Notes: a model not told the origin generated them from the sequence alone. A stretch of DNA of 54,458 nt from an uncultured Candidatus Saccharibacteria bacterium (GCA_964490365.1 CAZBAG010000001.1:1-54458); one strand, 5' to 3'; shown: positions 26,303-44,536, numbered from the stretch's first letter. Numbers and translations: made by a program.

Positions 26303-26695
26303 TTATTCTTTAAGATATTCACGAATGAGTATGGGTTCCTTATGGTCTGATTGAATTTCAGTGCAAATCGTGTACGTCAGATCAAACATCACAAAATACA
26401 CAGGAAGCCCAACGCCCTCTGCTGGGGAAACTATGCACATAACAGCTGTCTTGTTGTCTATTGGTAACCCAGCAGTTTCTCGTGTTTTCGCATGTAGCTC
26501 TTTTACGAGCCTTGTTACTTCTCCGGATTTTCCACCGCTATGGTCATCTTCAGTTGCAACGATGGATGATCCAACTGGGCCGGTTTTATACGGCCAATAC
26601 TCTGTGGGCACAAGTGCATCCTTGTTTTCCTTAATGTATTTCCAAAGATCTAGGTTGTGAACGATCATGATGGTGTTTTTCTTTTGTATTAACAA
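26303..26695 (-). CDS. hypothetical protein (130 aa; start may be the internal Met at 26668)
   Basis: Uninterrupted ORF with a terminator downstream. No recognised motifs. Confidence 0.5.
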   Translation of the reverse strand: MLIQKKNTIMIVHNLDLWKYIKENKDALVPTEYWPYKTGPVGSSIVATEDDHSGGKSGEVTRLVKELHAKTRETAGLPIDNKTAVMCIVSPAEGVGLPVYFVMFDLTYTICTEIQSDHKEPILIREYLKE

Positions 26696-26727
26696 TATTG
26701 TTCGTTAAAGTCAAGAAAGTTTTCAAG

Positions 26728-26755
26728 TTGCAAAAAAGTAAAAACCAGGTAGAAT
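26728..26755 (+). promoter_or_regulatory. tRNA-Ala promoter
   Basis: TTGCAA-16 nt-TAGAAT. The -10 ends 10 nt before the tRNA 5' end. Confidence 0.6.
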
Positions 26756-26765
26756 TGTTTTGTTT

Positions 26766-26838
26766 GGGCCTATAGCTCAGTTGGTAGAGCAGTCGCTTTG
26801 CAAGCGAAAGGTCAGGAGTTCGAATCTCCTTAGGTCCA
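26766..26838 (+). tRNA. tRNA-Ala (anticodon UGC), CCA not encoded
   Basis: Cloverleaf: acceptor GGGCCTA/TAGGTCC with the G3:U70 alanine identity pair, anticodon loop TTTGCAA, T-arm AGGAG-TTCGAAT-CTCCT, discriminator A. Confidence 0.95.
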
Positions 26839-26879
26839 CAAATTAGGGAAGCCAGAGTAATCTCTGGTTTTTCTTTTTG
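26835..26879 (+). repeat. junction repeat copy 1: tRNA-Ala 3' end plus terminator hairpin
   Basis: TCCACAAATTAGGGAAGCCAGAG-TAAT-CTCTGGTTTTTCTTTTTG. The same module recurs at 27625-27670 and 28193-28237. Confidence 0.85.
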
Positions 26880-26908
26880 TTGACAGGCCCTATCTAAAAA
26901 TGTAACTT
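26880..26908 (+). promoter_or_regulatory. cassette 1 promoter
   Basis: TTGACA-17 nt-TAACTT, immediately after junction copy 1. Confidence 0.55.
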
Positions 26909-26949
26909 AAAATTAGACGAACATCTACATAAATCAAAAACCGCTCCAA

Positions 26950-27507
26950 ATGCCCGTAATAAAAGTATGGTGCCTGCCGGTGTCATCAGAAGATACCCTC
27001 CAACATCTCCGTCAGTGTATTATTGGTGCAGCCTGCTCCGTTAAAGTACTTGCTTTAAAGGGTGAAGAGGATGTGACAGTCCTGTTCCCTCCAGATAGTA
27101 TGTCCTACGGACTTGGTTTAGATATTATTGTTGAGATTACAGGTCTCTTTGAGCGAGAGGAGCGGACTCGCGAAGTGATTCAAACACTTGCGTTTAGGGT
27201 TGGAAAAGTATTCAAACAATTATTCCCAAAGACCAAAAATGTCGAATGTTTCGTGTATCCATTCAACCCACACATCGGTGGCTTCTGGAGTTCACGAGAC
27301 AAAACTTCCGTACTGGATATTCCAATCACTGAACTCGATTTCAGGGGGACTCAAAAAGAGCGTTTAATAGCTGAAGGTATAAAAACCCTCGGTGATCTGA
27401 TTCAAATGCCACGTGAGAATGTGGCGAAACTTCGGACCTTTGGTAAGAAAAGTATGTACGCTTTGGATGAAGCGTTGGAGCATTTTGGTCTGGAGTTTCT
27501 GAAGTAA
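26950..27507 (+). CDS. cassette 1: fusion of tandem tautomerase-like (Pro1, beta-alpha-beta x2) domains with an RNA polymerase alpha-subunit C-terminal-domain-like HhH domain
   Basis: 185 aa. The C-terminal 60 aa (ITELDFRGTQKERLIAEGIKTLGDLIQMPRENVAKLRTFGKKSMYALDEALEHFGLEF) match the alpha-CTD pattern (L.LS.R..N.L...I..GDL.Q....EL.K..N.GKKS..EI...L...GL). The N-terminus MPVIKVW... with two beta-alpha-beta units resembles the 4-OT/MIF tautomerase superfamily; this part is the weaker call. Confidence 0.6.
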   Translation: MPVIKVWCLPVSSEDTLQHLRQCIIGAACSVKVLALKGEEDVTVLFPPDSMSYGLGLDIIVEITGLFEREERTREVIQTLAFRVGKVFKQLFPKTKNVECFVYPFNPHIGGFWSSRDKTSVLDIPITELDFRGTQKERLIAEGIKTLGDLIQMPRENVAKLRTFGKKSMYALDEALEHFGLEFLK

Positions 27508-27520
27508 TATCAGTGCTAAA

Positions 27521-27559
27521 GCCCGCAAAGGAAAGGTCCTTCGCGGGTCTTTCTTTTTT
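27521..27559 (+). terminator. cassette 1 terminator
   Basis: CCCGCAAAGG-AAAGGT-CCTTCGCGGG (one mismatch) followed by TCTTTCTTTTTT. Confidence 0.75.
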
Positions 27560-27629
27560 ACCCCAAAATCTCTCTCAATCTCACCAGTTCATCTACCATT
27601 TGTTTCGTCAAAATATTCTCCTGCTCCAC
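27558..27629 (-). CDS. candidate 23-codon micro-ORF (or relic gene 3' end) inside junction copy 2
   Basis: Minus strand: GTG-EQENILTKQMVDELVRLREILG-TAA. Versus copy 3, the last 17 sense codons before the terminal residue differ at 5 nt, all synonymous. Confidence 0.35.
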   Translation of the reverse strand: MEQENILTKQMVDELVRLREILG

Positions 27630-27670
27630 AGAATAGGGAAGCCAGACAATGTGTCTGGTTTTTCTTTTTG
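27560..27670 (+). repeat. junction repeat copy 2: conserved 71-nt block plus terminator hairpin
   Basis: ACCCCAAAATCTCTCTCAATCTCACCAGTTCATCTACCATTTGTTTCGTCAAAATATTCTCCTGCTCCACA + GAATAGGGAAGCCAGACA-ATG-TGTCTGGTTTTTCTTTTTG. About 10 mismatches in the 71-nt block versus copy 3. Confidence 0.85.
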
Positions 27671-27684
27671 TTTCAAGATTAATC

Positions 27685-27713
27685 TTGACTTTTTATATAA
27701 TCTATGCTATTGT
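27685..27713 (+). promoter_or_regulatory. cassette 2 promoter
   Basis: TTGACT-17 nt-TATTGT with TGC directly upstream of the -10 (extended -10). Confidence 0.55.
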
Positions 27714-27750
27714 ATATTTAGAAACTAAGTACCAATCAAAACCTCCTGCA

Positions 27751-28077
27751 ATGAAAATCTATATGACCGCCACGTTCACGATGATCCCTGGGTTGGTAGA
27801 AGAATTCAGAACCTGGATGAGGGACGACTTTTTGAAAAAGATCAGCAGTGAAGAACGTGCCGAAGGTATCTGTGGTCTCACCATCGATATGACAGATCCT
27901 TTGAAGAAACTCTGCTATCGGCTTGAATTCCGGAGTGAACAAGATCTCAAAGTCCACCAACTCTATTTGGCAGGAGCGGCAGACACCTATTTCAGTCAGA
28001 AATGGCTTGCACCCATGCAGCAAGGTAACTTGACCGCAATGATTGTTGTCGGACCAGAACATCAGTTCCGTATCTGA
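27751..28077 (+). CDS. cassette 2: hypothetical 108-aa alpha+beta protein (possibly DUF4286 / dimeric alpha-beta-barrel-like)
   Basis: ATG at 27751 (MKIYMTATFTMIPGLVEEFRTWMRDDFLKK...). The track ORF start at 27649 lies inside the junction and promoter. Family resemblance is weak. Confidence 0.5.
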   Translation: MKIYMTATFTMIPGLVEEFRTWMRDDFLKKISSEERAEGICGLTIDMTDPLKKLCYRLEFRSEQDLKVHQLYLAGAADTYFSQKWLAPMQQGNLTAMIVVGPEHQFRI

Positions 28078-28082
28078 TCAAG

Positions 28083-28127
28083 CCCGCCCTTGTACGGAAA
28101 GCCCGTCGCAATGGCGGGTTTTCTTTT
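28083..28127 (+). terminator. cassette 2 terminator
   Basis: CCCGCC...GGCGGG stem closing a 24-nt loop, followed by TTTTCTTTT. Confidence 0.65.
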
Positions 28128-28197
28128 ACTCCAAAATCTCCCTCAATCTCACTAACTCATCCACCATTTGTTTCGTCAAAACATTTTTGTGCTCCAC
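28126..28197 (-). CDS. candidate 23-codon micro-ORF (or relic gene 3' end) inside junction copy 3
   Basis: Minus strand: GTG-EHKNVLTKQMVDELVRLREILE-TAA. An in-frame TAA lies two codons upstream of the GTG. Confidence 0.35.
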   Translation of the reverse strand: MEHKNVLTKQMVDELVRLREILE

Positions 28198-28237
28198 AAA
28201 TTAGGGAAGCCAGATTTAGTTCTGGTTTTTCTTTTTG
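28128..28237 (+). repeat. junction repeat copy 3: conserved 71-nt block plus terminator hairpin
   Basis: ACTCCAAAATCTCCCTCAATCTCACTAACTCATCCACCATTTGTTTCGTCAAAACATTTTTGTGCTCCACA + AATTAGGGAAGCCAGA-TTTAGT-TCTGGTTTTTCTTTTTG. Confidence 0.85.
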
Positions 28238-28251
28238 GTAAATGGTTATTC

Positions 28252-28279
28252 TTGACATAAATAAAAAATATTGTAATAT
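28252..28279 (+). promoter_or_regulatory. cassette 3 promoter
   Basis: TTGACA-16 nt-TAATAT. Confidence 0.6.
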
Positions 28280-28304
28280 ATTCAATAAAGAAAATAACAA
28301 GCAC

Positions 28305-28589
28305 ATGCCACAATTATCAGCACCAGCATCGTATCTTAATGCAAGGCGTCCACCTCTTCAAGAAGCATTGGAACTTGAAGGAGGAACTCTCACAGAAAGT
28401 ATGGAATCTTTGGAGAGGAAGGGTTGCTTCACTCCTCTACCTACACCATGGGAGCTTGGATCTCATGATCAAGGAATGGGTCGATCTAGTTTTGCTGTAC
28501 TAGACTGCTTCGGAGATGTTGTAGTTGAAGTCAAAGACAAGCCGACGGCAGAGCTCATCATCGCTGCGGTGAATGCTCATCGGAAATAA
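28305..28589 (+). CDS. cassette 3a: hypothetical 94-aa protein
   Basis: ATG at 28305 (MPQLSAPASY...). The C-terminal ...FAVLDCFGDVVVEVKDKPTAELIIAAVNAH resembles small phage- or island-borne proteins ending in a ...A.LIAAAP...-type helix. Weak call. Confidence 0.5.
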   Translation: MPQLSAPASYLNARRPPLQEALELEGGTLTESMESLERKGCFTPLPTPWELGSHDQGMGRSSFAVLDCFGDVVVEVKDKPTAELIIAAVNAHRK

Positions 28590-28592
28590 GAA

Positions 28593-28805
28593 ATGCACAT
28601 GGCAAAAGGATCTCAAAAAAGTATGTTCTTTTTCCAAAAGAGCACGAGAGAGGAGAACTCTTTTCTTCTTGGGGTCAATCATGAGTTTTCGGGTGATATA
28701 ACCCTGCAGAACTTACTTGATTTTCTTCAAGAGAAGAAGATCAAGCCCAGTGATGTTCCCATAAGGGGTACTCATACATTCAATGTGTCACAGAAGAAAA
28801 AATAA
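28593..28805 (+). CDS. cassette 3b: hypothetical 70-aa protein
   Basis: ORF starting 3 nt after the 3a stop, followed by a strong terminator. No recognised family. Confidence 0.45.
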   Translation: MHMAKGSQKSMFFFQKSTREENSFLLGVNHEFSGDITLQNLLDFLQEKKIKPSDVPIRGTHTFNVSQKKK

Positions 28806-28806
28806 C

Positions 28807-28844
28807 CACCCGTAAGGAAATGCCTTAACGGGTGTTTTCTTTTC
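28807..28844 (+). terminator. cassette 3 terminator
   Basis: 12-bp stem CACCCGTAAGG / CCTTAACGGGTG with a 5-nt loop, followed by TTTTCTTTTCC. Confidence 0.8.
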
Positions 28845-28881
28845 CATGCGGGCTTCTTTTTATTTGTGTTACTATTTCTCT

Positions 28882-29991
28882 ATGACAAAACAAACAATTA
28901 TTTTTCTTCTTTCTTTTGGCACGCTTGCGCTCGGGCTTTCGTTTTTTACTTCATATGTCTATACGAAAGTGTTTCCAATGAGTGTACAACTTTCCTACGG
29001 TGTTAAAATCGCAGGTGTTGTTTTTCCACTCCTTTTTATTCTTGTAAATGTGCTGAGTCGAGTATCTGAGGCCCTTTTTGTAAAGTGGCTGTATACGATT
29101 GTGAATGTTGGCGCTGGCTTTGCATTTTATTTACTTCTTGGTGCACTCGTGCTTGGCTTCTTGTTCAGTCTTTACACCATGGTTGGCGCGTCAATGTCAG
29201 TATATCTTTCTAAAGTTGTTTTAATTATTGTACTTATATTGCCTACAATAGGTCTTTTGCAGGCTCGAACCATTACAAAAGTGTCACATCAAGTTGCTCT
29301 AGAAAACCTACCACCAGAATGGCAGGGTAAAAAAGCCATTCTATTTTCTGATTCGCATTATGGTTTAGTAAATCATACTAAAGCTGCACGAAGACTCGTG
29401 CGCGTTATGTTGCAGGAAAATCCTGACATGGTTTTTATCGCAGGAGATCTTTTTGATGGTCCAAATGTTACAACAGACTCGCTCACAGAAGCTTGGAAAG
29501 ATTTGTCTCTTACAACGCCTGTCTTTTATGCACCAGGAAATCATGAGGAATATGGTGACTACAGAAAGTTTCTACAAGCAACCCAAGAAGGGGGCTTTAC
29601 CATTCTTGAGGATAGCGTCCTCACGCACAATGGCGTACAAATTGCAGGTATTTTGTATCGTGCTAAAGGACAAGAAAGCGAAGTCTCTAATGTCCTTAAA
29701 AATATGCAGCTTGACCAAGCTCTACCAGCCATCTTGATTAGCCATCCTCCTACCTTTTTAGATATTGCTAATGCAGAAAATATTGATCTTATGTTCTCAG
29801 GACATACTCATAAAGGGCAATTTTGGCCACTGAACTACATTACAAAAGCAATCTACGGTAATTATCATTACGGACTACATACTTATGCTGATCTACAAGT
29901 ACTTACTACAAGTGGGGTTGGAACAGCCGGACCACCATTTAGACTATTTAATACGCCAGAAATTGTAGAAATTACATTCGTATCTAAGTAA
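28882..29991 (+). CDS. membrane-bound calcineurin-like metallophosphoesterase
   Basis: ATG at 28882. Four to five N-terminal TM helices, then phosphoesterase motifs (LFSDSHYG, AGDLFDG, GNHE, GHTH). Confidence 0.85.
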   Translation: MTKQTIIFLLSFGTLALGLSFFTSYVYTKVFPMSVQLSYGVKIAGVVFPLLFILVNVLSRVSEALFVKWLYTIVNVGAGFAFYLLLGALVLGFLFSLYTMVGASMSVYLSKVVLIIVLILPTIGLLQARTITKVSHQVALENLPPEWQGKKAILFSDSHYGLVNHTKAARRLVRVMLQENPDMVFIAGDLFDGPNVTTDSLTEAWKDLSLTTPVFYAPGNHEEYGDYRKFLQATQEGGFTILEDSVLTHNGVQIAGILYRAKGQESEVSNVLKNMQLDQALPAILISHPPTFLDIANAENIDLMFSGHTHKGQFWPLNYITKAIYGNYHYGLHTYADLQVLTTSGVGTAGPPFRLFNTPEIVEITFVSK

Positions 29992-37824: not shown

Positions 37825-40344
37825 ATGTCGAATTTATCATTTATTAGTAGAAAGAATCGTATGAACGTACAAACTATATTATCAAAGTCAGTGAGTCTTC
37901 TTACTGTTTTCGCGATGACATTTAACATGGCATTTGCACAAACTGTTGACGTAGAAGCTCCGGCAGCTCAAGAAGAAATAATGGAGGCAACAGAAGAAAT
38001 GGTCACAGAACCAGAAACTTCTGAATCAGAGGAAGAGGGTGGTGGAATTATAGAAGAAGTTCTTGGAGCTTTTTCTTTCGTGCAAGCGCCTGAAGAAGTA
38101 GTGGCGTTACCACCACCTCCTACTGGACCTGGATCTATTACGGTATGTAAAGCAATCGCTAAAAAAGTAGGCGATACCGTTTCTATTGCTGATCCAAGTG
38201 AGGTTCCAGGATATACATTTGAGATTCCTTGGGTTGAGGCTCCAGGAACTCCAGGCACAGAAGGATTCAATGTGCAACCACAAATTGCATCAAATGCTGT
38301 ATTCACTACGGATGCATTTAATCCAGAAAAAGCATTTTTTGGAGAAGTAAACGATAGTGATTGTACAAAATTCTCAAATCTTCCTCTTGGAAGTTATTTT
38401 TACGGTGAAGAAAAAATCACTGGTGGAGATGATTCAGTAACTTGGACTACAAAATATAGTGATCAAGTTTTACTTCCAGTAGATGCATTTGAAGATGTTG
38501 ATGAATACAATGATAATCTTTTTACTTCAGGGTTTAATACAACGTATGGTCCAGGTAACAAAGATGCTGATGGAAATATCTTTAATACAAATGCTGACGG
38601 ACACATAGTACTCAATCAAAGTAATGCGGGACGAAATCGAACAATTATTGTCCTCAATATTTTTGAAGAAATTCCTCGAGAAGAATACTGTGAGGTTGAC
38701 GACAATCTTGTTGTAAACGGCGGGTTTGAAACTCCTGTTGTAACAAATGGTTCTGGATGGGATATCTATAATGATGGAACATCAGGACTTGGATGGGATG
38801 TTGCGTGGAGAAGTGGACTTGTGGGTACTCCAACTATTCCAAAACTTGAATTACACCGAGGTGTAAATGGCTGGGTGCCAGAAGAAGGATCACAATATGC
38901 AGAGCTTGACACTGATTGGGGATATGCAAATAACGAACAAGCGTCTGTCGTAATTTCTCAGGAGATTGCAACAATTCCAGGTCAATACTACGAACTTAGT
39001 TATGCGTATTCTCCACGACCAGGAACAGACTACGAAGATAACATTATCAGAGTGTATATCAATGGTAGTCACGAAGATACACAAGGATTTTTCCTTGGTG
39101 GAGCAAACACTCTCTGGAATACCTATACTGTAGGATTCACCGCTGACTCTGCAACAACAACTATTGCATTTGAAGATGCAGGTTTGCCAAACTCACTTGG
39201 ATCATTCCTCGACGATGTACGAGTGAATTGTGCAGATGAACCAGCAGAACCAGAAATTACTCTTGTTGGACAAAAGATTGTATGTCTTCGAGAAGCAGAT
39301 CTTCCAAACTGGGGAGCTGGCGCAGCGAATATCACATCAACAACAGCTGCTGACTGGGTTGCGCATCGACCAGGATGTACTCTTATGAAAGGTTGGGAAT
39401 TTGAATGGGCATATTACAACACGCCAAACCCAGGAGACAATGACACGGGCCCAACAGGTGGAGATTGGAATCTATTTAACTCATATACAAACGTTCCAAT
39501 GCCAAGTGATACGGCTGACGATACAAAGCTATGGGTACGAGAAGTGCTTCCAGAAGGATACATTCCTTTCACTGGAGCAAATACTACAGAAAATGTAAGT
39601 GCTGAAATCTACTGTCACACTGATGTTTTGCACTACGATAACTATGAAAGAATCGACGATCTTGTAGAAGGTGGAACATACAACTGTGTTGCATGGAATG
39701 TTGAAGTACAAGATGATGAGCCTTCTTGTGAAGAAACTCAAAGTTGTGAAGAAGAAGAGATTACTATTTGTCATGTAAACGAAGGTAATGGAAATGACAA
39801 CACACTTACTCTTCCAATGAGCGGTGCACAAAATCACCTAGAAAACCATGAAGGTGATTATGAAGGCGTGTGTGAAGGGGATGATAATGATGACGACAAC
39901 AATGACCAACCAAACAATAATAATTCTGGTAGTAACTCATCGGGCTCACAACGACGAAGTGGAGGTTCAGTAGCAGGAGCTTCAACAGGCGATGTACTTG
40001 GTGCATGTGTTCCATTCACTGAGTATCACAGAAAAGGTGATACAGGTGGAGAAGTTGCGCGAATCCAAGAATTCTTAAATGAACACATGAACGCAGGTCT
40101 TACTGTTGACGGAGTATATGGAGATACAACAGTAAAAGCGGTTCATACCTTCCAACAAAAATACTTTGAACAAATTATCCGACCTTGGGTTCCGTCATTT
40201 ATGGCGCGAACAACAGGTAAGTGGTACAAGACAACACGAATGATGGCAAACGAACTTATCGTATGCCCAGAATCAGAAGTGTATCTTGAAGATCCAAAAG
40301 TAATGTACAAAGTGAAGTGGGAAGCAGCAGTAAAACAAGACTAA
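37825..40344 (+). CDS. large secreted surface protein, paralogue of the 32232 gene product
   Basis: 839 aa. Signal peptide (...FNMAFA/QT) and acidic linker. A SITVCK beta-sandwich plus DUF642-like module collinear with the 1222-aa protein. Extra beta-sandwich (VREVLPEGYIP). Cys-rich ITICH...H..H motif. Asp/Asn-rich linker. The same PG-binding C-terminal module. Confidence 0.85.
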   Translation: MSNLSFISRKNRMNVQTILSKSVSLLTVFAMTFNMAFAQTVDVEAPAAQEEIMEATEEMVTEPETSESEEEGGGIIEEVLGAFSFVQAPEEVVALPPPPTGPGSITVCKAIAKKVGDTVSIADPSEVPGYTFEIPWVEAPGTPGTEGFNVQPQIASNAVFTTDAFNPEKAFFGEVNDSDCTKFSNLPLGSYFYGEEKITGGDDSVTWTTKYSDQVLLPVDAFEDVDEYNDNLFTSGFNTTYGPGNKDADGNIFNTNADGHIVLNQSNAGRNRTIIVLNIFEEIPREEYCEVDDNLVVNGGFETPVVTNGSGWDIYNDGTSGLGWDVAWRSGLVGTPTIPKLELHRGVNGWVPEEGSQYAELDTDWGYANNEQASVVISQEIATIPGQYYELSYAYSPRPGTDYEDNIIRVYINGSHEDTQGFFLGGANTLWNTYTVGFTADSATTTIAFEDAGLPNSLGSFLDDVRVNCADEPAEPEITLVGQKIVCLREADLPNWGAGAANITSTTAADWVAHRPGCTLMKGWEFEWAYYNTPNPGDNDTGPTGGDWNLFNSYTNVPMPSDTADDTKLWVREVLPEGYIPFTGANTTENVSAEIYCHTDVLHYDNYERIDDLVEGGTYNCVAWNVEVQDDEPSCEETQSCEEEEITICHVNEGNGNDNTLTLPMSGAQNHLENHEGDYEGVCEGDDNDDDNNDQPNNNNSGSNSSGSQRRSGGSVAGASTGDVLGACVPFTEYHRKGDTGGEVARIQEFLNEHMNAGLTVDGVYGDTTVKAVHTFQQKYFEQIIRPWVPSFMARTTGKWYKTTRMMANELIVCPESEVYLEDPKVMYKVKWEAAVKQD

Positions 40345-40420: not shown

Positions 40421-42808
40421 ATGAAGCAATACGACCATAAAGAAATAGAATCGAAATGGCAGAAATTCTGGCAAGAACAAGGAGTCTACACAACAGAAGA
40501 TTTTTCACAAAAACCAAAGCACTACATTCTCGACATGTTTCCGTATCCATCGGGAGCCGGGCTTCATGTTGGCCACCCTCGAGGTTATATTGGTTCTGAT
40601 GTTCTTGCTCGCATGCGACGCATGCAAGGTTTTAACGTGCTTCATCCAATGGGCTTCGATGCCTTTGGTCTTCCAGCCGAACAGTACGCCATTCAAACGG
40701 GCGAACATCCATTAGTTATTACTGAAAAAGCAATCGAGACATATAAAAAACAATTAGAAATTATTGGTCTTTCATATGACTGGTCACGAGAAGTACAAAC
40801 GATTGATCCGAAATATTACAAATGGACTCAGTGGATTTTTCTCCAGCTTTTTGATTCGTACTACGACGAACAAGAAAAAAAAGCAAAACCAATACAAAAT
40901 TTAATTTCAAAGTTTGAACACGAAGATGCTTCTTGGTCTTCTAAGACAGAACAAGAACAACAAGATGTGCTGATGAACTATCGTTTGGCATATGAAGGAT
41001 ATAGAGATGTGAACTGGTGTCCGGAGCTTGGCACAGTGCTTGCTAACGACGAGATTGTCGATGGTCCAGATGGAAAGCCTGTTTCAGAGCGAGGTGGTTT
41101 TCCTGTTGAAAAGAAAAATATGCGGCAGTGGTTTTTACGAATTACTGCATATGCCGACAGACTTTTATCTGGTCTTGAAGGACTTGCTTGGCCAGAGCAT
41201 ATCAAAGAAATTCAAAAGAATTGGATTGGAAGATCTGTTGGTGCGGAGATTGAATTTTCTGTAAAAGATAGTGATGAAAAAATAAAAGTTTTTACTACGA
41301 GACCAGACACGCTGTTTGGCGTGACCTATCTTGCAATACCTGGAGGAGAAAATACATTTACTGGAAAGTATGCAATCAACCCTGCAAACGACGAAGAAGT
41401 TCCGATCTGGGAAGCAGACTATGTTTTAGAGGGTTATGGCACTGGGGCTGTGATGGGTGTACCTGCTCACGATGAGCGTGATTTTGAATTTGCGAAAAAG
41501 TTTGGTTTACCAATAAAAGAGGTAATTGAAAAACCTAAAACTTTTAATGTTGATATTTATACAGACTACGGCATTGTTAAAAACAGCGCAAGCTGGATGA
41601 ATGGACTTTTTTCAGAAGATGCAGCACAAGAAGTTGTTGAACACTTAGAAGCTGCAGGTCTTGCAAAATTTGTTACAAAATACAGAATGCGTGATGCTAT
41701 TTTTGCTCGCCAACGATATTGGGGTGAGCCGATTCCTCTTGTACATAAGGATGGAATAATTTCTTCGCTTTCAGAAAAAGATTTACCACTTGAGCTTCCA
41801 AACGTAGATTCATATAAACCAACAGGTACGGGAGAGTCTCCACTTGCTGGTGTTTCCGAATGGGTAGAAAAAGGGTACGAAACAAACACTATGCCTGGCT
41901 GGGCAGGATCTTCATGGTATTTCTTGCGGTATATGGATCCGAAAAACAGCGAGGCGTTCGCTGGAAAGGAAGCGGTCGACTATTGGCAAGATGTTGATGT
42001 ATATATTGGAGGAGCAGAGCATGCAACAGGGCACCTTCTTTATGCGCGTTTTTGGCATAAAGTTCTCCATGACCTCGGACATGTTCCAACCGAAGAACCG
42101 TTTAAATTTTTGAAAAACCAAGGTCTTATTTTAGCGAGCGATGGACGCAAAATGTCAAAACGATGGGGGAATGTTGTAAACCCAGACGAGATGGTTGATC
42201 GATTTGGTGCGGATGCGTTTCGTCTCTACGAAATGTTTATTGGTCCATTTGAACAATACACATCGTGGAATACTGATGGACTTGTGGGAACGTATCGATT
42301 TTTAGAAAGGGTGTGGAGAGCGAAAGAAAAGATTGGCGATGTAAGTAAAGAAATTGATGTGCTCGTACACAAAACTATCAAAAAAATTACTGAAGATGTT
42401 GAAAATTTCAGATTCAACACGTCTGTGTCATCGATGATGATTCTTGTAAATGGTATGGAAGAAGTACATTCTTTTTCAAAAGAAAGCTATCTAAATTTTC
42501 TAAAAATTCTTGCACCATTTGCTCCGCATATGACTGAAGAACTTTGGCATGAGCTCGGAGAAACAAGTTCAATCCATCTTTCCGATTGGCCAAAATCTGA
42601 TGAATCAAAATTTAAAGATGAAAAAGTAACAATTGCTGTTCAAGTGAATGGAAAAGTTCGCGACGAAATAGAGATCGCTCCCAATGCCACAGAAAGTGAA
42701 GCAAAAGATCTTGCCCTGTCATCTTCTTTAGTTCAGGAATTTATAGGGGGTCATACTGTGAAGAAGTTTATTTATGTTCCTGGTAAGATAGTAAATATTG
42801 TTATCTAA
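40421..42808 (+). CDS. leuS: leucyl-tRNA synthetase
   Basis: 795 aa. HVGH (HIGH) motif, CP1 editing region, KMSKR (KMSKS) motif. Confidence 0.96.
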   Translation: MKQYDHKEIESKWQKFWQEQGVYTTEDFSQKPKHYILDMFPYPSGAGLHVGHPRGYIGSDVLARMRRMQGFNVLHPMGFDAFGLPAEQYAIQTGEHPLVITEKAIETYKKQLEIIGLSYDWSREVQTIDPKYYKWTQWIFLQLFDSYYDEQEKKAKPIQNLISKFEHEDASWSSKTEQEQQDVLMNYRLAYEGYRDVNWCPELGTVLANDEIVDGPDGKPVSERGGFPVEKKNMRQWFLRITAYADRLLSGLEGLAWPEHIKEIQKNWIGRSVGAEIEFSVKDSDEKIKVFTTRPDTLFGVTYLAIPGGENTFTGKYAINPANDEEVPIWEADYVLEGYGTGAVMGVPAHDERDFEFAKKFGLPIKEVIEKPKTFNVDIYTDYGIVKNSASWMNGLFSEDAAQEVVEHLEAAGLAKFVTKYRMRDAIFARQRYWGEPIPLVHKDGIISSLSEKDLPLELPNVDSYKPTGTGESPLAGVSEWVEKGYETNTMPGWAGSSWYFLRYMDPKNSEAFAGKEAVDYWQDVDVYIGGAEHATGHLLYARFWHKVLHDLGHVPTEEPFKFLKNQGLILASDGRKMSKRWGNVVNPDEMVDRFGADAFRLYEMFIGPFEQYTSWNTDGLVGTYRFLERVWRAKEKIGDVSKEIDVLVHKTIKKITEDVENFRFNTSVSSMMILVNGMEEVHSFSKESYLNFLKILAPFAPHMTEELWHELGETSSIHLSDWPKSDESKFKDEKVTIAVQVNGKVRDEIEIAPNATESEAKDLALSSSLVQEFIGGHTVKKFIYVPGKIVNIVI

Positions 42809-42811
42809 TCT

Positions 42812-44536
42812 ATGGTAAAAAGGGTATTTAATTTACTACAAAGAGAGTTCTCGAACATTAACCAAGCTGCTATTATTTTAGGTTTCTTCACCTTACTTTC
42901 TCAAGTACTTGGTCTTGTTCGTGACAGAATGTTTGCACACCAACTTGGTCCATCCAGCTCTCTTGATGTGTATTATGCAGCATTTCGAATACCTGATTTT
43001 ATCTTTGTGTCGGTTGCATCACTTGCTTCGGTGACCGTCCTACTTCCGTTTCTTGTAGAAAAACTTGGCGTGAAAGAAGATGGGGAATTAAACGGCAATT
43101 CACTCAAAGCAAAAAAATTCTTAAATGATACCTTCACCATTTTTTTGGCGGCAATGATTATTGTTTCAATACTTTGCTTTATCTGTATGCCACTTCTGGT
43201 AAAATTTGTGGCTCCTGGTTTTTCTGGACAAGAGCTCAAAGACCTCATTGTGTTAAGTAGAATTATGATCTTGTCTCCTATTTTTCTAGGACTTTCAAAT
43301 CTATTTGGGTCGGTTACTCAAATGTTCAAAAAGTTCTTTATTTTTGCCCTGAGCCCGCTTTTCTATAATATTGGGATAATCCTCGGTATTTTGGTCTTTT
43401 ATCCAATCTGGGGCCTTCCAGGGCTTGCTGTGGGGGTTGTGGTTGGGGCTTTTATGCACATGCTCATACAATTTCCTGTATTGGCAAAACATGATTTTCT
43501 GCCTCAAATTTCCTGGAAAATTTCTTGGTCTGATCTGAAAGAAATGGTGCTGACATCGCTCCCAAGAACAATCGGACTTTCACTCAGTACCATATCTTTG
43601 ATTGCGATCGTGGCCATTGCGTCACTTATTGGCGAAGGAGCAATTTCAACATTTCAATTTTCTTTGAACTTACAAAATGTTCCGCTTGGTATTATCGGTA
43701 TTTCGTATTCGGTAGCCGCGTTTCCAACGCTCACTCGATTTTTCCAAGGACAAAAAATGAGTGAGTTTGTTTCGTATATTGCGCTGGCGGCACGACAAAT
43801 TATTTTCTGGTCACTTCCAGTGATGTTTCTTTTTATTGTGCTTCGTGCGCAAGTTGTTCGTGTTATTCTTGGTACAGGAAATTTTTCTTGGGACGATACA
43901 CGTCTCACTGCTGCGTCGCTCGCATTGTTTGCGATCTCAATTTCTGCGCAAAGTCTTATTCTGCTTTTTACCAGAGGATACTATGCTGCAGGGAATACTA
44001 AAAAACCACTTTATATCAATGTATGCTCAACAGCAGTGACGATTGTTGCTGCGTTTTATTTTGTGCATATTTTTAAACACCACGAAATGTTCAGGTACTT
44101 TTTTGAATCGTTGCTTCGTATTGAAGATATTGCACATTCCGAGATCGTCATGCTTCCACTCGCATATTCTCTTGGCGCCATTCTCAATGCCTTCTTTTTG
44201 TGGATTAATTTCCGAAGCGATTTCCGAGTGGAAGACACAAAAGATTCTTTCTTATTAAAATCATTCTTTCAAAGTTTTGCCGGAGCCTTCTTTATGGGTT
44301 ATGTTGCATATGCATTCTTAAATGTGTTTGATAAGTTTTTTGATATCAATACGTTTTGGGGAATTTTAGGTCAAGGATTTTTCTCAGGACTCCTCGGAAT
44401 TTGTTCAGGATATGTTGTGCTTAAAGTTTTGAAGAATGAACAAATGGAACAAATAGAAAATGCGCTCAGCAAAAAACGATTTTGGAAAACACCAGTAGTG
44501 CAGGGAAGTGAAGACGAACTCCACACTCTTTCATAA
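42812..44536 (+). CDS. murJ: lipid II flippase MurJ (MviN family)
   Basis: 574 aa, polytopic. N-terminal LGLVRDRMFAHQLG...DVYYAAFRIPDF pattern typical of MurJ. Confidence 0.88.
   Translation: MVKRVFNLLQREFSNINQAAIILGFFTLLSQVLGLVRDRMFAHQLGPSSSLDVYYAAFRIPDFIFVSVASLASVTVLLPFLVEKLGVKEDGELNGNSLKAKKFLNDTFTIFLAAMIIVSILCFICMPLLVKFVAPGFSGQELKDLIVLSRIMILSPIFLGLSNLFGSVTQMFKKFFIFALSPLFYNIGIILGILVFYPIWGLPGLAVGVVVGAFMHMLIQFPVLAKHDFLPQISWKISWSDLKEMVLTSLPRTIGLSLSTISLIAIVAIASLIGEGAISTFQFSLNLQNVPLGIIGISYSVAAFPTLTRFFQGQKMSEFVSYIALAARQIIFWSLPVMFLFIVLRAQVVRVILGTGNFSWDDTRLTAASLALFAISISAQSLILLFTRGYYAAGNTKKPLYINVCSTAVTIVAAFYFVHIFKHHEMFRYFFESLLRIEDIAHSEIVMLPLAYSLGAILNAFFLWINFRSDFRVEDTKDSFLLKSFFQSFAGAFFMGYVAYAFLNVFDKFFDINTFWGILGQGFFSGLLGICSGYVVLKVLKNEQMEQIENALSKKRFWKTPVVQGSEDELHTLS

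Follow-up and report, generated by a model that had tools for sequence, protein, structure and literature searches.

Single-gene units separated by recurring terminator junctions behind a tRNA-Ala gene in an uncultured Candidatus Saccharibacteria bacterium: candidates for serial insertion

The DNA analyzed here, called the window throughout, is a stretch of 54,458 nucleotides (nt) from an uncultured Candidatus Saccharibacteria bacterium (GCA_964490365.1, CAZBAG010000001.1:1-54458). The region of interest is the interval between a tRNA-Ala(UGC) gene and a metallophosphoesterase (MPE) gene, where small open reading frames (ORFs) alternate with copies of a terminator-like repeat (Table 1). The order between tRNA and MPE is junction J1, ORF1, junction J2, ORF2, junction J3 and the pair formed by ORF3 and ORF4, and every interval contains a promoter-like site and a private terminator. 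The array is bordered by Ddl, Tag, an ORF of 121 amino acids (aa) and the tRNA-Ala on one side and by MPE on the other side, with no integrase among these neighbors. As proposed in the initial annotation, the cassette ORFs are unrelated: they share no mutual similarity, which rules out tandem gene duplication. The contrast in base composition suggested in that annotation disappears upon full counting, the G+C content being 42.0% in the array segment, 39.5% in the window and 37–42% in the neighboring genes; this is not distinctive, and the idea of a compositional island was dropped.

Table 1. Positions of the features in and around the tRNA-Ala to MPE interval, counted from the first letter of the window.
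Feature	Position	Strand	Remarks
121-aa ORF	26303..26668	-	upstream of tRNA; no Pfam, PHROG, PADLOC or PDB match
Head of inverted 121-aa unit	26687..26750	-	TTGACT-17-TAATAC, half core hairpin, T-run; inverted repeats I19-I21
tRNA-Ala(UGC)	26766..26838	+	no encoded CCA; ARAGORN and Rfam, 70.9 bits
J1 core, attL-like	26835..26879	+	TCCAC, trailer, 13-bp hairpin, T-run; intrinsic terminator of the tRNA
Promoter-like site, ORF1	26880..26908	+	TTGACA-17-TAACTT, TG before second hexamer; read from sequence, below scanner threshold
ORF1, 185 aa	26950..27507	+	Pfam PF03118, E = 7.7e-8
ORF1 private terminator	27518..27559	+	hairpin and T-run read from sequence; homologous to terminator behind the L033 ORF1 homologue
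65-nt arm, right end of ORF1 cassette	27560..27624	+
J2 core, hybrid between two cassettes	27625..27670	+	TCCAC, trailer, hairpin, T-run
Promoter-like site, ORF2	27685..27713	+	TTGACT-17-TATTGT, TG before second hexamer; promoter scanner
ORF2, 108 aa	27751..28077	+	orphan
ORF2 private terminator	28080..28127	+	read from sequence
65-nt arm, right end of ORF2 cassette	28128..28192	+
J3 core, attR-like	28193..28237	+	probably native tRNA-Ala trailer and terminator
Promoter-like site, ORF3-ORF4 unit	28252..28279	+	TTGACA-16-TAATAT; promoter scanner
ORF3, 94 aa	28305..28589	+	small uncharacterised family, 32 representative clusters at E <= 1e-3
ORF4, 70 aa	28593..28805	+	38% identical to 74-aa ORF of L045, E = 4e-12 (small local database)
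ORF4 terminator	28806..28843	+
GCGGGCTTCTTTTT	28849..28861	+	aligns with 3' half of terminator of the L045 127-aa unit before MPE
MPE gene	28882..29991	+	Pfam PF00149; conserved right-hand anchor of the variable interval

The three junctions share a core of 45 nt that opens with TCCAC and a trailer of 7 nt and goes on to a hairpin, whose 12-bp stem is common to all copies, and TTTTTCTTTTT; the copies first noted at 26835, 27625 and 28193 were all confirmed. Gapped identity is 91% between J1 and J3 and 85% both between J1 and J2 and between J2 and J3, and the longest exact repeat, common to J1 and J3, measures 22 nt. The 13-mer TAGGGAAGCCAGA occurs exactly three times in the 54 kb; when up to two mismatches are tolerated, six matches are found in the window for 0.72 expected from shuffled sequences. 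This repeat had been described as a copy of the tRNA 3' end followed by its terminator. The terminator part of this description is correct, whereas the tRNA part is not: the core overlaps the tRNA by 5 nt only (TCCA and one base), the remainder being trailer and terminator, so that the repeated site cannot be called tRNA-derived.

All three hairpins score as intrinsic terminators, each combining a stable stem-loop that contains G+C with a U-run immediately behind it on the transcribed strand, and that of J1 folds with −21.7 kcal/mol (z = −4.9). Since the stem holds three G-U pairs and is fully paired only as plus-strand RNA, we interpret it as an intrinsic terminator rather than as a DNA cruciform. 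The stems had been reported to differ between copies while remaining self-complementary; the pairing is indeed preserved, but the copies differ solely in the loop and in one or two extra apical pairs, and the shared stem is nearly invariant (10 invariant pairs and two one-sided changes from G-U to A-U). No double compensatory changes exist in the shared stem of the three cores, and compensatory evolution of the hairpin was rejected on this ground.

J2 and J3 are each preceded by a 65-nt arm. The two arms are 85% identical to each other and were not found anywhere else in the window, in agreement with the earlier observation of about 65 nt of conserved sequence before the second and third copies; the arm of the ORF1 cassette is also 76% identical to one in a sister species (L056, see below). 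Local alignments between arm and tRNA score no better than shuffles (p about 0.1–0.4), and a decayed tRNA was discarded as the nature of the arm for want of significant similarity. On the minus strand, a frame of 17–18 aa reading (TTG/ATG) TKQ[M/I]VDELVRL[R/K]E[I/N]L.. stop is preserved in each of the three arms (27560-27630, 28128-28198 and L056:774-845). As for the regular layout attributed to the array, the promoters behind J2 and J3 are recovered by the promoter scanner, whereas the one behind J1 is visible in the sequence and falls below the threshold, and the third interval has no closing junction, contrary to what had been stated for all intervals.

Insight into the history of the interval comes from related loci, which were retrieved through MPE orthologues; judged by the MPE homologues, the window belongs to Paceibacteria/Nomurabacteria-type bacteria of the candidate phyla radiation (CPR). 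The interval is a site of variable insertion, its content being different in each of four related species. In L045 (MPE 60% identical) the gene order is that of the window, with UvrB, UvrA, UvrC, Ddl and tRNA-Ala followed further on by MPE and an fn3 protein, and the tRNA-Ala is 100% identical over 76 nt. Behind this tRNA lie a 190-nt non-coding insert, a tRNA 3'-end repeat, a promoter, a 74-aa homologue of ORF4 and its terminator, and then an arm-like segment, GTCCAC, a hairpin, a promoter, a 127-aa ORF and MPE; ORF1, ORF2 and ORF3 are absent. The contig of L070 (MPE 61% aa identity) starts within tRNA-Ala; 205 nt of non-coding insert separate this tRNA from a copy of 18 nt of its 3' end (GATTCTCCTTAGGTCCAC, 17/18 matching), behind which lie a degenerate homologue of the core terminator of the window, and MPE. 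With no ORF cassette before MPE, this layout is the closest to an empty site, and it points to tRNA-Ala, TCCAC, trailer, terminator and MPE as the ancestral order; the empty site that the initial annotation had suggested looking for is approached but not matched, in view of the insert of about 205 nt. The closest relative found, L044 (MPE 86%), has a different gene upstream of MPE, and in L005-L016 (MPE 42–47% aa identity) gene order is not conserved and tRNA-Ala does not lie upstream.

The junction itself recurs beside different cargo in L056 (MPE 58%), a sister species that co-occurs in the samples of the window strain. The cargo here is another gene, encoding at least 240 aa; downstream of it come the gene's own terminator, an arm homologous to those of the window, TCCAC and the hairpin, and then, after 17 nt, MPE. 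Identity to J2 and J3 is 75–78% over this junction, against 66% for the DNA of the adjoining MPE gene; the core of the junction is nearest to that of J3 (80%, versus 73–74% for J1 and J2). Three separate assemblies of the sister species yield contigs whose first base falls exactly at TCCAC (L004:1, L057:1, L058:1), and two Logan contigs (L059:1, L060:1) start with a 30-mer made of the hairpin and T-run. Such contig starts suggest that in this species, too, the core occurs more than once, or that a polymorphism or branch point lies at its upstream edge.

Taken together, these data lead us to favor, with moderate confidence, the view that the ORF1 and ORF2 units are two serial, lineage-specific insertions at the TCCAC/trailer site, brought about by a site-specific recombinase encoded elsewhere. 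The succession of three cores and two arms is precisely that predicted for two tandem insertions, with copy spacings of 790 and 568 nt. Support for insertion comes further from the relatives: L070 has no ORF cassette, L056 carries the junction with other cargo, L045 has the gene order and the ORF4 unit of the window without ORF1, ORF2 and ORF3, and homologues of the 121-aa ORF lie next to tRNA-Ala (L045) and tRNA-Leu (L047). In addition, the closest homologue of ORF1 (L033:344-904, 66% aa identity) is found behind another tRNA, ~320 nt from its 3' end and next to adk and tsaD, and a 9-nt repeat, TCACAAATA, occurs both at this tRNA end and behind the ORF1 homologue. Site-specific recombination is preferred because of this direct-repeat geometry, because the arm is conserved beside unrelated cargo, and because integrase-style repeats are found in relatives (see below). 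We infer that the crossover took place at or near TCCAC and, purely by inference, that the units were mobilised in trans. The tRNA-Ala to MPE interval would then be an insertion hotspot in the Paceibacteria-type CPR group, J3 representing the native trailer and terminator of tRNA-Ala. The ORF1 cassette would measure 790 bp (about 26840-27629) and the ORF2 cassette 568 bp (about 27630-28197), each comprising trailer and terminator hairpin, promoter, one ORF, private terminator and 65-nt arm. Upon circularisation of such a cassette, arm, TCCAC and hairpin would unite as an attP-like site of ~110 nt, and recombination of this site with the chromosomal TCCAC-trailer-terminator would duplicate the 45-nt segment, each insertion leaving its arm on the right and a copy of the core on the left. 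Under this scheme J1 would be attL-like (tRNA plus core), J2 would consist of the arm of the first cassette and a core that leads into the second one, and J3 would be attR-like (arm of the second cassette plus native terminator). The unit of ORF3 and ORF4 would be an older neighbor, common to the window and L045, and a further unit beside MPE would have been lost or moved, its homologue now lying inverted upstream of the tRNA. With J3 as the native terminator and two insertions only, the missing fourth junction is no longer a puzzle. The original proposal of serial insertion at tRNA-Ala thus stands as regards the variable site and the recurring junction, and is reduced from three insertions to two lineage-specific ones, the ORF3-ORF4 unit being present in L045.

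Several results weigh against this interpretation. Pfam scans covered 37 ORFs, made up of 31 with 120 aa or more together with the cassette ORFs and the ORF of 121 aa; in these only housekeeping functions were found and, as stated in the initial annotation for the window, no recombinase or transposase. Fourteen listed ORFs of at least 120 aa lie outside the scans, including the two largest (37825-40344 and 40421-42808) and 42812-44536, most of the others overlapping longer scanned ORFs. The gene tables of the related loci contain no recombinase either. Logan assemblies of the window strain showed neither a circular junction nor an empty-site variant, and the array is 100% identical in independent assemblies of four samples. 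Because these are base-identical, the array looks fixed and stable. The junction pattern TAGGGAAGCCAGN{4,14}CTGGTTTTTC has 0 matches in GTDB species representatives and 0 in IMG/VR, and the junction family was observed in only two species, one of them the sister species L056; the sole match in JGI metagenomes (L003) is due to chance, being an unrelated terminator in an organism of higher G+C content. The duplicated segment reaches only 5 nt into the tRNA, which is unusual for tRNA-targeting integrases. Moreover, DNA homology between the ORF1 module of L033 and the window covers promoter, ORF and terminator and leaves out the flanks. Because the flanks of this module differ, cargo and att-like ends do not always travel together. 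Genes of the ORF1 family also occur without a tRNA nearby in two other contexts (L061; L062-L065), and a general linkage of the family to tRNAs was accordingly rejected.

Lastly, a 45-nt direct repeat could also stem from homologous recombination of the Campbell type, and this leads to the first alternative, in which RecA recombined the chromosome with an imported circular or linear fragment that bore the conserved tRNA-Ala end, trailer and terminator, in a Campbell-type or anchor-mediated event that duplicated a segment of 45–110 nt, CPR bacteria being able to take up DNA. The tRNA-Ala, 100% identical between species whose proteins are ~60% identical, would be an ideal anchor, J1 and J3 have the exact stretch of 22 nt in common, DprA is encoded within the window, no recombinase was found, and homology accounts better than a classic tRNA att core for a duplication of 45 nt of which most lies beyond the tRNA. 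Nevertheless, we regard such an origin as unlikely: the junction copies are only 75–91% identical, with short exact stretches that make a poor RecA substrate, the conservation of the arm across species beside unrelated cargo suggests a recognised site, and the clean repeats of 17–28 nt of tRNA 3' ends in relatives are typical of integrases.

The stability of the array and the rearrangements in its vicinity are also what would be expected if there had been no mobility, that is, if a terminator/junction module had been duplicated locally long ago and ordinary gain and loss of genes, with rearrangement, had then reshaped a fast-evolving intergenic region. In line with this, the array is fixed and identical in the four samples, an inverted 121-aa gene with half a hairpin and a half-terminator scar before MPE are found nearby, and the closest relative, L044, carries a different gene upstream of MPE. 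Such a history would nonetheless require that genes unrelated to one another, each bringing a promoter and a terminator, arrived time and again at exact positions between junctions, and it leaves unexplained the same junction beside different cargo in L056, the ORF1 module behind another tRNA, and the pair of occupied and empty tRNA-Arg sites described below (L016 and L014); we consider it quite improbable. An assembly artefact, in which segments were duplicated or collapsed, is suggested by nothing beyond the presence of repeats, and this worry expressed at the outset is effectively refuted: two Logan samples have contigs running unbroken from inside the tRNA across J1, J2 and J3, and two more have shorter ones across J2 and J3. 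Since the four assemblies agree base for base and the longest exact repeat (22 nt) is below the assembler k of 31, the array is not an artefact.

Conservation of the junction could also reflect selection for a functional module, either an insulator made of two terminators together with the next promoter, or a small gene on the minus strand of the arm. The junction is conserved at 75–85%, against 66% for neighboring coding DNA, its hairpin is 100% paired, including G-U pairs that are possible in plus-strand RNA alone, and no stop interrupts the small ORF in J2, J3 or L056, J2 having AGGAG 6 nt ahead of the TTG start. Among its variable columns 8/14 fall on codon position 3, a bias short of significance (p = 0.058), the antisense frame is likewise open, and no promoter was identified on the minus strand; as a coding sequence this ORF is an unproven candidate. 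A second terminator 65 nt after the private one would be redundant, and function alone explains neither the direct-repeat geometry nor the pattern of presence and absence, so that selection of this kind appears a very improbable explanation of the array.

Returning to insertion by a site-specific recombinase, the array resembles in its workings the nearest known systems (islands at tRNA and tmRNA genes, cis-mobilizable elements and integron cassette arrays), yet it lacks features that define each of them. CALINs are clusters of attC sites without a nearby integrase. The array resembles integron arrays and CALINs in that short, mostly single-gene units of unrelated function end in a recombination-site-like sequence and have no recombinase inside. 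The analogy with integrons proposed initially does not go further, since there is no adjacent IntI and the platform is a tRNA trailer and not attI, and since each unit has its own promoter and terminator, in contrast to promoterless cassettes expressed from Pc. With its three G-U pairs and the T-run behind it, the hairpin appears to be an intrinsic terminator of the RNA type rather than an attC bottom-strand DNA fold, as judged without a formal attC model. The cores resemble intrinsic terminators in their 12–14-bp G+C-containing hairpin followed by the T-run, and J1 ends the tRNA transcript; those of J2 and J3, by contrast, lie only 65 nt past a private terminator and are redundant as terminators, so that why they recur along with the arm has to be explained in some other way. 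Nor does the junction behave as a miniature inverted-repeat transposable element or a repetitive extragenic palindrome, no further copies having been found within the window or among related loci totalling ~600 kb, and no terminal inverted repeats having been detected; profiles of junction and arm searched with nhmmer in the same ~600 kb gave no new copies. In IMG/VR the degenerate 22-mer of the arm has 0 matches, an 18-mer of the arm has nine that are attributed to chance as their flanks show no similarity, and the single match to the tRNA-Ala 3' end is a phage tRNA array of no relevance here.

Islands integrated at tRNA and tmRNA genes by tyrosine integrases, including tandem arrays, are one such known system (Islander database, PMC4383910; Dehalococcoides ssrA islands, PMC3146451). 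Like the array, they are inserted at the 3' end of a small-RNA gene, have direct repeats at their ends, form serial tandem units and vary in content among relatives. They differ in being kilobases long, usually with the integrase aboard and with a real piece of the tRNA duplicated, whereas the units described here span 0.57–0.79 kb and contain a single small ORF without a recombinase domain. A displaced tRNA 3' fragment, absent as a repeat from the array, is present in the short inserts of relatives, with their repeats of 17–28 nt. Presence and absence at the same site are observed between species (L070, L045, L056), and none was seen within the population of the window strain. A further parallel is offered by the cis-mobilizable elements (CIMEs) and the accretion-mobilisation process of streptococci (reviewed in PMC5704250), which likewise involve integrase-less DNA with att-type repeats, in tandem at a specific site, and a recombinase supplied by another element. 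Direct att-type repeats without a recombinase of their own are indeed what the array displays, the 45-nt repeats flanking both units. CIMEs, however, derive from a known integrative and conjugative element or integrative and mobilizable element that shares their att sites and lies beside them in tandem, whereas the array has no known autonomous partner and its units are much smaller.

A broader generalization can be put forward tentatively, as a possibility that we consider rather doubtful: a platform for gene capture in Paceibacteria-type CPR bacteria, resembling an integron in function but not in construction, in which self-expressed cassettes of ~0.6–0.8 kb with an attP-like site of ~110 nt are stacked at the tRNA-Ala trailer by a recombinase encoded elsewhere, the inserts of 140–205 nt described in the next paragraph being cargo-less members or products of the same machinery. 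CPR bacteria have tiny genomes, in which gene gain and loss are little understood, and a full-text literature search found no description of such units in these bacteria. If true mobile cassettes, the units would be among the smallest integrative elements described, with one gene, its own promoter and terminator and a site of ~110 nt, and they would provide a route for orphan genes into reduced genomes beside a conserved tRNA anchor; if only the scar of an old recombination, the interval would be an ordinary tRNA-adjacent variable region. The junction in any case offers a concrete sequence handle for searching metagenomes for cassette turnover and for a co-occurring recombinase.

Non-coding inserts of 140–205 nt are found in relatives directly behind tRNA-Ala, tRNA-Leu(CAA) and tRNA-Arg(GCG) (L045:6819-7027; L070:47-264; L047:1486-1689, also in L048; L016:11954-12112), each bounded by a direct repeat of 17–28 nt of the tRNA 3' end. 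In the case of tRNA-Arg, L016 is occupied and L014:11447 is the matching empty site. This pair, together with the repeat-bounded inserts, indicates that insertion at tRNA 3' ends is active in the clade. The inserts begin with a new terminator hairpin and hold an inverted copy of the tRNA T-arm (GGAGATTCGAA, AGAGAGAATCGAA, GGTAGGAATC) able to pair with the downstream repeat. When folded with the adjacent tRNA they are strongly structured (z = −6.6 and −8.6), and an Rfam scan of the window region and of these inserts returned nothing except the tRNA. They may be integrative elements without cargo, scars of att sites or genes for small RNAs. Four different tRNAs bearing an insert or a cassette read ..CA|CA(A/T)A.. 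at the tRNA end (TCCACAAAT, GTCACAAAT, AGCACAAAT and GGCACATAA; window 26838-26845, L033:26-35, L016:11951-11960 and L047:1483-1492); the tRNA-Arg of the empty site in L014 reads AGCACATGG, and the tRNA-Thr of the window has an encoded CCA instead. The motif may represent a shared left end or crossover site.

Local rearrangement is apparent on both sides of the array. Homologues of the 121-aa ORF upstream of the tRNA are found downstream of tRNA-Ala in L045, where it is the 127-aa ORF preceding MPE, and downstream of tRNA-Leu in L047 (32–35% identity, E about 1e-16 in a small local database). The head of this inverted unit aligns with the sequence downstream of J2 and J3, and the reverse complement of 26731-26750 reads ACCTGGTTTTTACTTTTTTG. 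The unit thus resembles a fourth gene of the cassette type, apparently moved and inverted, one breakpoint lying in the hairpin loop. The short segment GCGGGCTTCTTTTT before MPE is apparently the 3' half of a lost terminator, a scar that would remain from a unit since deleted or moved.

With regard to the encoded proteins, ORF1 combines two domains. The C-terminal one resembles the C-terminal domain of the RNA polymerase alpha subunit (E = 2.6e-6 with alpha-subunit C-terminal domains in the PDB), while the N-terminal one belongs to a CPR family of ~116 aa without a Pfam hit, which some sources annotate as phenylpyruvate tautomerase family or tautomerase-like. Among 102 homologues of ORF1, only a few contain the fusion of both domains. 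For ORF2, a word-seeded search of a database of 5.8 billion protein clusters returned only the window's own protein, and Pfam gives only a weak match to DUF4286. ORF3 is missing from the corresponding unit of L045. No annotation was obtained for ORF4 or the 121-aa ORF, and PHROG and PADLOC gave no matches for these or the other cassette ORFs, for which reason phage or defence cargo was dropped as an interpretation. The ends of the ORF4 unit are far better conserved than its coding part: in comparison with L045, the terminator (L045:7333-7372) is identical at about 35/36 nt and the promoter of the ORF3-ORF4 unit matches that before the ORF4 homologue at 24/28 positions (both hand counts), against 38% for the ORF4 proteins and 60% for the MPE proteins. 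Finally, a −10-like hexamer lies 6 nt before the MPE start codon ATG, both in the window (TACTAT, 28862-28884) and in L056 (TAGAAT, L056:885-904), with no Shine-Dalgarno sequence, and the MPE messenger RNA may be leaderless.

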